DNA of 64,000 bases from Malacoraja senta (GCA_038087875.1 CM075990.1:4218001-4282000); one strand, 5' to 3'; counted from the first letter of the stretch, positions 22,379 through 26,169 are shown. Notes: generated by a model not told the origin, from the sequence alone. A program made the numbers and translations.

Positions 22379-24714
22379 CTATTGTGAGCAGTTGCAAACA
22401 TTTTGAAAGAAAGGTGAAAACATTTTTTTAACCCAGTCGATTAAATTCATTGGGATTTTACATGTCTCAGTGCTGGTCACCACACTTTAAATTACTTACT
22501 CTATCAGAGAGGCCATTCAGCCCATTAGACCCATGCCAGCTCTAAGCAGAGCAATCCGCTGTCGTAATCCCATCTCCTATTTGCTCTGCACCCCCTGCAA
22601 CTTCATCTCCAGCTCCCCTTTGATTCTTTAGCCACTTCTGTAGAACAAGGGGCTTCGCAACATCCAGCTGCAGTAGGTGGGACATGGGAGGTGGATGGGA
22701 CACTTGGGAAGCTGGAACAGTCACGAGGAGAACGCGCAAACTCCACACAGACAGCGCCGGTGGGCAGGATGGATGAGAGAGGGCAGGAGAAGAGATTTCT
22801 CGGATGGATCCAAGGACGAGGCATTTCAGCTCCAGGACAGGCACAAAAATACTGGAGCAACTCGCCGGGTCAGGCAGCATCTCTGGAGGAAAAGGGTGGG
22901 TGACGATGCAGGTCGGGAGCACGTCTCCTGACTCAGAAGATCCCTTCACAGAAAGTGGTCCTCTGCCGACTGGTGTCCCAACCCTATTCGATGACCTTGT
23001 AACTCGAGTTGAAAGTTGCTCCCGCTAATGGTCAGGGACTTCCTTCCGACCGCAATGACTCAAGTACTTAAACGTAGGCAGCGGTTAACGGGGAGAAAGC
23101 AGGGGAATGGGGTTACGAGGGAGAGATAGATCCGCCATGATCGAATGGCAGAGTAGACTTGATGGGCCGAATGGCCCAATTCTGCACCTAGAAGCAGGAG
23201 GAGGCCACACTGCCCCTCGAGCTTTCTCTGGCTTTTACCAAGATCATGACCGATCTGATTTGAACATCTCTACATATAACCTGCTGACGTCTTGGTAACC
23301 TCCACCCCTTCTTCTCAAGAATCCTACCAATCATTTTCAAAGGCTCCACTTTTCCTGCCCCTTGAGGGGGAAGAGGGTTCCAGGTACTGGTGACTATCCA
23401 AGATAAAATGTTGCCTCATATCTCACAAGTCATAAATGATAAGAAGTTGAGGAGCCAGTGCTAATCGCTGTGGTGTGCCACTTCTTAAATCTTGCCCGTG
23501 AGAAAAGACCCATGTATGTTTCTTGTTGGCCACCTAGTTTTCTATCCGTACCAGTTTGTTACCTTTGACACCACGAGCTTTCAGTTTCTCAATCCTGACT
23601 ACGGCTGCTGTCTGTATGAAGTTTTTAACGCTCTCCCCGTGACCGCGTGGGTTTTCTCCGGGTTCTCTGGTTTCCTCCCACAATCGAAAGACATACAGGT
23701 TTATGGGTTAATGATGTCAGCTTATCAGATGCCTCTTGGAAATCTAAATGCAGAACAGCTCCTAGTTCCCCAGAATCCTTCTATTTCGTATCTCATGATA
23801 ACACAGTAGGATGCAATTCAGCCCATCAACTGAATTGAGGGTGGTGGCGTGGTGGCGCAGCGGTAGAGTTGCTGCCTTACAGTGCTTGCAGCACTGGAGA
23901 CCCGGGTTCGATCCCGACTACGGGTGCTGTCTGTACAGAGTTTGTACGTTCTCCCCGTGACCTGCGTGGGTTTTCTCCGAGATCCTCGGTTTACTCCCAT
24001 ACTCCGAAGGCGTACAGGTTTGTAGCTTAATTGGCTTGGGTTTGTTTACTTGGTATAAGTGTCAATTGTATCCACGCTGAACTCTAAACTAAACTAAACT
24101 TTACACTGTCTCTACACATCAGCCTCTTTCCTCAACTGGACACAAAGTGCTGGAGTAACTCAAGGCCACACGGTGGTGCACGATAGATTTGCTGCCTTAC
24201 AGCGCCAGAGACTATGGGTGCTGTCTGTGCGGAGTTTGTACGTTCTCCCTGTGACTGCATGAGTTTTCAGATTCTCTGGTTTCCTCCCACACTCCAAAGA
24301 CGTGCAGGTTTGTAGGCGAATTAGCTTCAGTAAAAGTTGTAAATTGTCCCTAGTGTGTGTAGGATAATGTTGGTGTGCAGGGATCGCTGGTCGGTGTGAA
24401 CTTGATGCCTGTTTTTGGGCTGTTTCTCTAAACGAAACTCAGAGGATCAGGCAGCATCCCTGGAGAACATGGACAGGTGACGTTTTGGATCGAAACCCTT
24501 CTTCAGACTGGCCAACCGAATTCCCCATAACTTATTCTAGGTCTTTTGCCCTTTGAATCCACTCAAATTCTGCAACTCATCGACACGAGGGTTAATTAAC
24601 AGCCAATTAACCTAGCAAACATGTCTGGGATGTGGGAGGAAACTGGATCACCCAGGGGGGTGGTAACCAAAGTGGACACGGAGAGAATGCAAATGTCACA
24701 CAGGCCGCATCCGT

Positions 24715-24771
24715 GACTCAATTTCTGGTCTCCAATTGGAGGCGTGGGTTCGAATCCCACTTCTGACACCA
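24715..24771 (+). pseudogene. 3' two-thirds of mature tRNA-Leu(CAA), intronless, with CCA
   Basis: GACTCAA-T-TTCTGGTCTCCAATTGGAGGCGTGGGTTCGAATCCCACTTCTGACA-CCA contains the anticodon CAA, long variable arm, T loop and acceptor strand plus CCA. The D arm and 5' end are absent, so it is not a functional tRNA gene. Confidence 0.88.
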
Positions 24772-24948
24772 TGTTGGTTTGGAGTCCTTGTAATAATAAA
24801 GACCTCACACCATGTCAGGTTATACACTGCTTATTTAGAATAAACAACTACAAGCTCTCACTTGAGAGTTCACTTCAGACTGGGGAGTGCAGTAGACCGC
24901 GACGCTAATAAGCTAGTGGGCGTAACTACAAAAGAATGACTCATAACA
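24772..24948 (-). mobile_element. Short LTR (Gypsy-like) abutting a tRNA-Leu primer-binding site
   Basis: The minus strand reads TGTTATGAGTC...CCAAACCAACA followed directly by TGGTGTCAGAAGTGGGAT, an 18-nt PBS complementary to the tRNA-Leu 3' end. It interrupts a SINE. Confidence 0.75.
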
Positions 24949-26169
24949 TGAGCCACTAATCTACAGGTGGAAGCCCGACCACGGGACCCATGAGGCAGCA
25001 GCACTACCTGCTGTGCCGTTTGCTGCGAGATCGGTCCGCTGCGTTAACAGTAAGGCCCTGCAGGACATCCAAACGGGCTCCTTCACTTTGACACATTTAG
25101 ATTCGCACCTGAGCTGGGCAGATACAGGCTGGTAGTGCTGCTGCCTCATGGTGACAGAGTCCGGGGATCGATCCTGACCTTGGGTGTGGAGTTTGCACGC
25201 TCTCCCTGTGACCGCGTGGGTTTCCTCCGGGTGCTCCGGTTTCCTCCTACATCCCAAAGACTTGCGGGTTTGTCGGTTAGCTGCCCTCTGTAAATAGTCC
25301 CTGGTGTATGGGGAGTGGACGTGAATGTGGGATAACAGGAGGCTAGTGTGAGCGGGTGATCGATGGTCAGCGTGGACTCAGGTTGGCGAGCCTGTATGTT
25401 TCATTCAATCAGTGAAGGAGAATATATACACAGCTGTACTGGCTGTGAGGTAGCAGTACATAAACACAGAGGTCTCAAGGTTTATGTTGAAAGCGGCATG
25501 GATGTTGAGAAAGGTGTGAAAAGGGCCTGAATAAATGCACAGGAGCAAGGATGTGTAATGGTAAATAGTGGTTCAGCATGGAGCCTCTGTCTCACAGCTC
25601 CAGCGATGCCTCTTCAACCCTGAACTCTGGTCCTGTCTGTGTGGGGTTTGCACGTTCTCCCTGTGTTGGTGCGGGTTCATCCAAAAGACGTGGGCACAAA
25701 GTTTTGGTGTAATCCAGCGGGACATGCAGCATCCCTGGAGAACATGGATAGGCTATGTTTCGGATCGGAACCCTTCTTCAGACCGCACGTCGGAAGATGA
25801 GTCCCGACCTGCAAAGTCACCGATTCATGTTTCTCCAGAGATGCTGCCTGACCTGCTGTTACTCCAGTATTTTGTGTCCTTTTGTGTAAATCAGCATCTG
25901 CAGTTCCTTGTTTTTACAAAAAAACACGTGAGTTGGTGGGATGGGTGTAAATGAATCCATCATAGTTGGTGTGGACACGGTGGGCTGAAGGGCCTGTGAT
26001 CACAGTGTGAATCTGAGCCACGATGGGCCCGTACAAAACACCACTGGTCATAGTTGGAGTGGGTCCACATTGGGACGCCACCCTTTTAAGAAAGATGTGT
26101 AGGTATTCAGGAGGAATTAGTTCCACTTATTCTCACGCGTACCAAGATACAGTGAAAGGTTTTTTGTTG

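Follow-up and report, generated by a model that had tools for sequence, protein, structure and literature searches.

Defective HIV-1 proviruses formed by delayed (aberrant) second-strand transfer have been described by Hardy et al. 2025 in a set of 44 sequences (PMC12657518), and hence the mechanism invoked here is already known. The plus-strand strong stop is the methylated m1A58 of the tRNA primer, whose loss is said, in the relevant part of Fukuda et al. 2021, to block completion (PMC8599865). m1A, m1G and m3C are reported to provoke misincorporation, arrest and skipping by reverse transcriptase (RT) (PMC4787781, PMC7466121), and m3C47d has been published for the variable loop of tRNA-Leu(CAG) (PMC7969016, PMC11417395). 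Regarding retrotransposons, the Mag lineage of Ty3/Gypsy is described as having elements of ~5 kb with LTRs of 140-300 bp, a tRNA-Leu or -Ser PBS and mostly a 5-bp TSD (PMC3286476).

The window, by which we mean the whole 64,000-nucleotide stretch of Malacoraja senta DNA under analysis (GCA_038087875.1 CM075990.1:4218001-4282000), carries on its minus strand the end of an LTR and then a 57-nt antisense copy of tRNA-Leu(CAA), running from tRNA position 76 to position 30 (window 24771 to 24715; Table 1). The copy has the CCA, lacks the intron and shows T at position 37 (24722). There is a second mismatch, a T (24736) against the native variable-loop C, which the preliminary description had overlooked, and A58 was copied correctly. 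Downstream of the junction, no gag-pol was found beyond the tRNA copy. Within the window, ARAGORN gave no tRNA gene and Rfam a chance match only. The preliminary description had listed the intronless antisense copy with its CCA and T37, followed by no internal sequence, and all of this is borne out by the sequence and by the native genes. By itself the locus is a dead relic and shows no sign of function. We are confident in reading it as a Gypsy LTR to which a reverse copy of mature tRNA-Leu(CAA) is attached, likely left by read-through of the primer, likely with misreading of methylated bases and likely with one-ended integration.

Table 1. Features of the LTR-tRNA locus, in window coordinates
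Feature	Position	Strand	Basis
LTR, 194 bp, TG...CA, of a Ty3/Gypsy family with ~5-kb full-length members	24772..24965	-	relatives 92-97% identical
18-nt copy of tRNA-Leu positions 76-59 with CCA end; usual strong-stop span	24754..24771	-	sequence
39-nt over-extension, tRNA positions 58-30 (T arm, variable arm, anticodon), spliced form	24715..24753	-	sequence comparison
T for the native Leu(CAA) variable-loop C; predicted m3C misread	24736..24736	+	native genes and other copies
T for native G37; likely m1G37 misread	24722..24722	+	native genes and other copies
Junction zone: last tRNA-like bases, in the place of 6 similar bases of related SINE copies	24715..24720	.	6-base gap in 3/3 usable SINE relatives (24 hits)
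5' part of interrupted tRNA-derived SINE, outer edge approximate	24966..25025	-	sequence and SINE relatives
3' part of same SINE, collinear with 5' part, outer edge approximate	24590..24714	-	sequence and SINE relatives

To define the template, we compared the copies with the native genes. A search of the genome with the 5' half of the tRNA returned six loci: three intact Leu(CAA) genes, a degenerate one, a truncated one and one LTR junction. A native intronless Leu(CAA) gene with T37, which had been named beforehand as a finding that would speak against misreading, was not among them; the three intact genes (L131-L133) and the degenerate one (L135) carry G37 and then an intron, of 31 nt in L131. 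The native Leu(CAA) genes have no CCA, and the variable-loop C is present in 4/4 native CAA-type genes retaining the region. The template of the copies was the spliced, CCA-added tRNA. Gene searches with a gap of <=30 nt, or without CCA, missed the intron-bearing genes that the 5'-half search found, and exon boundaries were set by comparison with the copies; ARAGORN misplaced the intron and the anticodon. Two Leu(CAG) genes have the same 3' end as Leu(CAA), and Leu(CAG) tRNA can act as a primer too. The assembled tRNA gene set is incomplete, with no exact gene for the commonest copy type (A-type, G57) or for one loop variant of Leu(CAG). The Leu(CAA) genes L132 and L133 (G000:C7:13402141 and 13461182), which are identical, have A57, against G57 in most copies of the type; a CpG may have changed later, or a gene may be missing.

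A search of the window's own genome (1.94 Gb) with a 177-bp LTR query gave 503 candidates, of which 40 were scored and 30 fetched. The LTR is a real repeat, as had been proposed, with 92-100% identity among the 40 scored candidates (of 503) and with both paired and solo copies bearing 5-bp TSDs; its length, previously put at 177 bp, is 194 bp, the flanks of relatives setting the outer edge 17 bp beyond the earlier estimate, at 24965. LTR pairs were found with TG...CA ends, TSD, PBS and polypurine tract, as in Ty3/Gypsy elements, and the TSD is 5 bp in 14/16 two-LTR elements with clean TG..CA ends. Two full-length relatives of ~5 kb (L213 and L214) gave Pfam matches to RT, RNase H and integrase in the Gypsy order, together with weak upstream protease matches below the curated cut-off. 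The pol region of L214 also contains, at L214:3407-4354 and on the opposite strand, an insert that we take to be a LINE-like fragment (reverse-transcriptase tail). Primer pairing extends over 10 nt in L213 (L213:612) and 8 nt in L214 (L214:641), and copies L018, L026 and L028 match the tRNA over 8-10 nt. Since the full-length elements pair with the primer over 8-10 nt only, a normal 18-nt strong stop would overhang too. Among the 14 distinct PBS-bearing LTRs nearest to that of the window, nine are over-extended (the window's included), two reach 18-19 nt and three 8-10 nt. The 18-19-nt copies (L024 and L029) may themselves be aberrant transfers.

By exact pattern search we found 24 + 131 + 225 = 380 junctions genome-wide between an LTR and at least 28 nt of tRNA, a count that includes assembly duplicates and in which the non-A58 pattern required TG only, while the A58 patterns required TGT. 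Reversed control patterns gave 0 matches for all three junction patterns and for the variable-arm pattern. The junctions are spread over several different Gypsy LTR types or ends, and both end points and junctions vary between copies. We fetched all 24 loci of the first group, the first 30 in each of the other two (131 and 225) and all 84 variable-arm pattern matches. These contained 195 PBS matches, and for 186 of them TG comes next. Merging these 186 left 150 events, in 145 of which the tRNA match is at least 28 nt long; ungapped tallies exclude copies with T-loop indels. The idea of a lone fossil, a one-off intermediate, has to be given up: there are hundreds of such copies, the majority ending with a jump into the interior of the element itself. 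Read-through of the mature tRNA primer, in turn, draws its support mainly from these other copies. In L129, L138, L192 and L196 the strand seems to have been re-primed on tRNA sequence, with duplicated or inverted tRNA pieces at the junction.

A genome-wide tally of mismatches had been suggested for tRNA positions 58 and 37; they are concentrated at both, and additionally at the variable-loop C. Position 58 was non-A in 131/380 junctions, in comparison with 6 at the adjacent A59 (Fisher p 8e-38). In the set picked on the variable arm, regardless of the T-loop bases, 22/54 copies were non-A at this position, against 1/54 at the neighbour. A hand count of the first 100 of the 131 matches listed gave 64 T, 26 G and 10 C at position 58, and this excess of transversions looks unlike neutral decay.

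Regarding the variable-loop C, it was changed in 27/33 copies picked on positions 51-76 only (25 of them to T), while four neighbouring bases showed changes in 1/103 calls. The A-type isodecoder copies read 36 T/17 C/5 G/3 A at this base and the G-type copies 13 T/2 C/1 G/1 A; seven Leu(CAG)-type copies, read by eye, were non-C at the equivalent site. A peak of stops just before this C, seen in 21/65 with a CAA-only model, became blurred when Leu(CAG) and skips were allowed, and a sharp stop there was not upheld once both were taken into account.

Position 37 was changed in 7/9 events that pass it by at least 4 nt, with 6 T, 1 C and 2 G in unrelated contexts. Misreading of G37, as put forward in the preliminary description, is thus supported mainly by the other copies, and the methylation would account for it; in the window itself the tRNA end overlaps a similar SINE motif, so that its T37 leans on the other copies more than on itself. 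Of the events reaching position 39, 51/59 end at 39-37 (49/54 in one set and 2/5 at other loci), and 8 pass position 36. According to these results, errors pile up at population level at position 58, the variable-loop C and position 37, and it is at 37 or immediately ahead of it that most copies end. Site-specific misincorporation at these three sites exceeds that at neighbouring bases, as in RT signatures, and from the sequences the sites would correspond to m1A58, a variable-loop m3C (an e2/47d-type site) and m1G37.

One- or two-base deletions at or beside position 58 or the variable-loop C were seen in L136, L149, L183 and L098, as expected of RT skipping; the L149 junction was found four times on contig C5273. 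The longest copies offer single cases of other changes: around 25-26 in L057 (75 nt), C34 read as T in L031 (L031/L139), and A36 read as G in L034.

We then classified the fate of the over-extended strand. In 90/145 events it joins gag-pol in sense within 60 nt, at acceptor sites scattered along the element. The remaining events comprise 8 inverted, 18 with a more distant gag-pol match, 4 with a LINE match only and 25 with no match; the sense class leaves out the 4 matches to the LINE inserted in the reference and the 18 lying >60 nt from the junction. Because some of the 25 no-match events resemble diverged gag-pol, host-joined events amount to at most ~29/145. The internally deleted elements integrated normally, given the 5-bp TSDs of 14/16 clean two-LTR cases. 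LTR-pair identity ranges from 81.8 to 100% across 26 pairs; an event with two LTRs can be dated from them and, if our reading is right, the modification record with it. Some junctions were found more than once, with flanks and primer bases that differ (L151/L197; L153/L157/L182), and these differences indicate independent events at homology hot spots. At 13 testable internal jumps microhomology was modest, with a mean of 1.8 nt versus 0.34 nt in the control.

Some inverted outcomes are worth describing. L101 (G000:C1:10625706-10628737) consists of two inverted 203-bp LTRs, 98.5% identical, within a perfect 5-bp TSD; the LTR examined is followed by a 35-nt tRNA copy, and L109 has this same junction beside a different flank. 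L101 likely arose from two over-extended strands primed on opposite strands. L092 (G000:C1:280156517-280159546) holds two LTR-tRNA junctions, one on each strand and separated by ~300 bp, which do not share the same base at position 58. Recurrent inverted joins in L153, L157, L182, L144, L175, L176 and L212 lie where tRNA 38-45 matches RT coding sequence, a homology hot spot; by motif reading, the matching stretch presumably sits just after the RT active-site aspartates.

As for the sequence of events, plus-strand synthesis from the polypurine tract would have copied the LTR and then overrun the m1A58 stop. The RT likely misread methylated bases (the variable-loop C and G37 in the window copy), stalled and switched template. 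The over-long 3' end is unable to pair with the short PBS and would therefore land elsewhere: as the copies display, mostly within gag-pol of the same element in sense, the products being deleted elements flanked by 5-bp TSDs, in some cases in inverted orientation, and in others in host DNA as in the window. In this last case, integrase may have joined the precise TG end and host repair the tRNA end by microhomology.

The window copy does not continue into a downstream internal site, lacks a 3' LTR and a TSD, and is joined straight to host DNA, which places it in a minority of the events. The interrupted repeat that flanks it is, we assume, a tRNA-derived SINE. SINE relatives show the two flanks in collinear order, separated by a 6-bp gap that the tRNA end fills (3/3 usable of 24 hits); these relatives came from a looser alignment, a stricter one giving none that span the site. 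At the tRNA end of the copy, the final 6-7 bases coincide with a motif of similar sequence in the SINE target, and 4-5 of the last 7 could derive from the target. The junction zone at 24715-24720 is likely a microhomology join without TSD. The split SINE and a microhomology join had been proposed beforehand; the partial 4-bp TSD described with them does not stand, as the family TSD is 5 bp and the window has none, and it was an artefact of the wrongly placed LTR edge. A solo LTR formed by LTR-LTR recombination was ruled out for this copy, in which the TSD match is 0/5, compared with 5/5 in the true solo LTRs L009, L014 and L023, and in which the PBS/tRNA copy is present.

One could argue that the over-extended cDNA was patched into a chromosome break by end-joining, without integrase. 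The missing TSD, the small target loss and the microhomology are all in keeping with this, and Ty1 replication intermediates are captured at yeast breaks (PMC11372161). However, three host-joined targets can be reconstructed (the window, L058 and L061), and in all three the LTR begins precisely with TG, without added polypurine-tract bases, and the 3-6 bp that were lost lie at the tRNA-side join: L058 has collinear flanks, a 3-bp loss (11/12 relatives) and no TSD, and L061 a loss of ~6 bp (mode 6, wide spread), also without TSD. Among yeast 3' LTR pieces, 40/56 of those captured had extra cDNA-only bases, a comparison relevant only if the cDNA of the M. senta family has them (PMC11372161). Break capture is the less probable account, and we lean towards integrase acting at the TG end and host microhomology repair at the tRNA end. 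That the window copy is an ordinary internally deleted element whose interior and 3' LTR were lost later is very improbable: although most products are of this kind, the SINE picks up again no more than 6 bp from the interruption, and a later deletion would need to have stopped precisely at the insertion site and taken the TSD with it. Even harder to believe is that a master element inherited the long tRNA tract and passed it on to the whole family, an alternative raised at the outset. The 9/14 over-extended LTRs nearest to the window's and the few junctions present in several places would fit it, but full-length L213 and L214 pair over only 10 and 8 nt, and lengths, bases, ends and junctions vary between copies and across several LTR types.

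The T at the variable loop and at position 37 could also come from native tRNA genes missing from the assembly and not from misreading. The gene set is indeed incomplete, T is the majority base at the loop position, and a hidden gene could for that reason explain part of the variable-loop T. Nevertheless, this account would require hidden genes with T for both isodecoders, and others with G and with A; the sole G-type gene found has C, yet 13/17 G-type copies read T; C and G are also seen at position 37, where a T is unusual for a CAA tRNA; and the position-58 errors are beyond its reach. We consider hidden genes an unlikely source. Against our own reading of an m3C on Leu(CAA), the parts of two reports that cover this modification give variable-loop m3C for Leu(CAG) and Ser only (PMC7969016, PMC11417395).

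Preferring misreading during primer read-through, we think it fairly probable, on the strength of the copies, that LTR graveyards hold a dated in vivo library of tRNA modifications, that germline m1A58, m1G37 and a Leu(CAA) variable-loop m3C are among its entries, and that read-through is a major source of short non-autonomous elements, including inverted-LTR forms. The genome-wide record, rather than the single locus, is the point of interest. If we are right, an assembly by itself is enough to locate tRNA modifications, both in species that lack RNA data and in earlier times; the stop at m1A58 leaks in vivo when the reverse transcriptase is that of a retrotransposon; and over-extended products integrate and pass to descendants. 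A concrete origin is also offered for internally deleted, TRIM-like elements. What appears to be new is the large germline record and the predicted m3C on Leu(CAA): a literature search, which was not exhaustive, turned up neither a germline collection used as a modification map nor a description of m3C on Leu(CAA).

The closest parallel is HIV-1, in which LTR, PBS and primer tRNA (7-54 nt) likewise stand at the deletion junction, followed by a jump downstream (PMC12657518). The window copy shows the LTR, PBS and over-extended mature-tRNA copy of delayed second-strand transfer; the continuation at an internal downstream site, present in the 90 sense events, is replaced in it by host DNA. In the HIV-1 sequences position 58 was changed in 5/44, and positions 58 and 54 are the ones discussed in the pertinent part of that report (PMC12657518). 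The HIV-1 case is one of somatic infection with a tRNA-Lys3 primer (PMC12657518), whereas the M. senta copies are germline-fixed, come from a Gypsy source and comprise at least 380 junctions, three error sites, and inverted and host-joined outcomes. The M. senta copies overran the very stop defined by Fukuda et al. 2021, and in both cases over-extension blocks normal transfer (PMC8599865). According to the relevant part of that study, read-through products are unable to complete synthesis and integrate (PMC8599865), while many of those in M. senta did integrate, rearranged.

The errors resemble the RT signatures of tRNA sequencing, with misincorporation, arrest and skipping at Watson-Crick-face methylations (PMC4787781, PMC7466121, PMC7969016, PMC11417395). 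Those signatures are obtained in vitro from present-day RNA, in contrast to the in vivo, genome-fixed record of M. senta, whose modifications we infer from sequence. The M. senta family resembles the Mag lineage in size, tRNA-Leu PBS and 5-bp TSD, which we take as a resemblance only (PMC3286476). Finally, as in Ty1 break capture, LTR-rich replication intermediates were inserted without TSD; the captured Ty1 pieces often carry extra cDNA bases, whereas the resolved M. senta cases start exactly at TG (PMC11372161).
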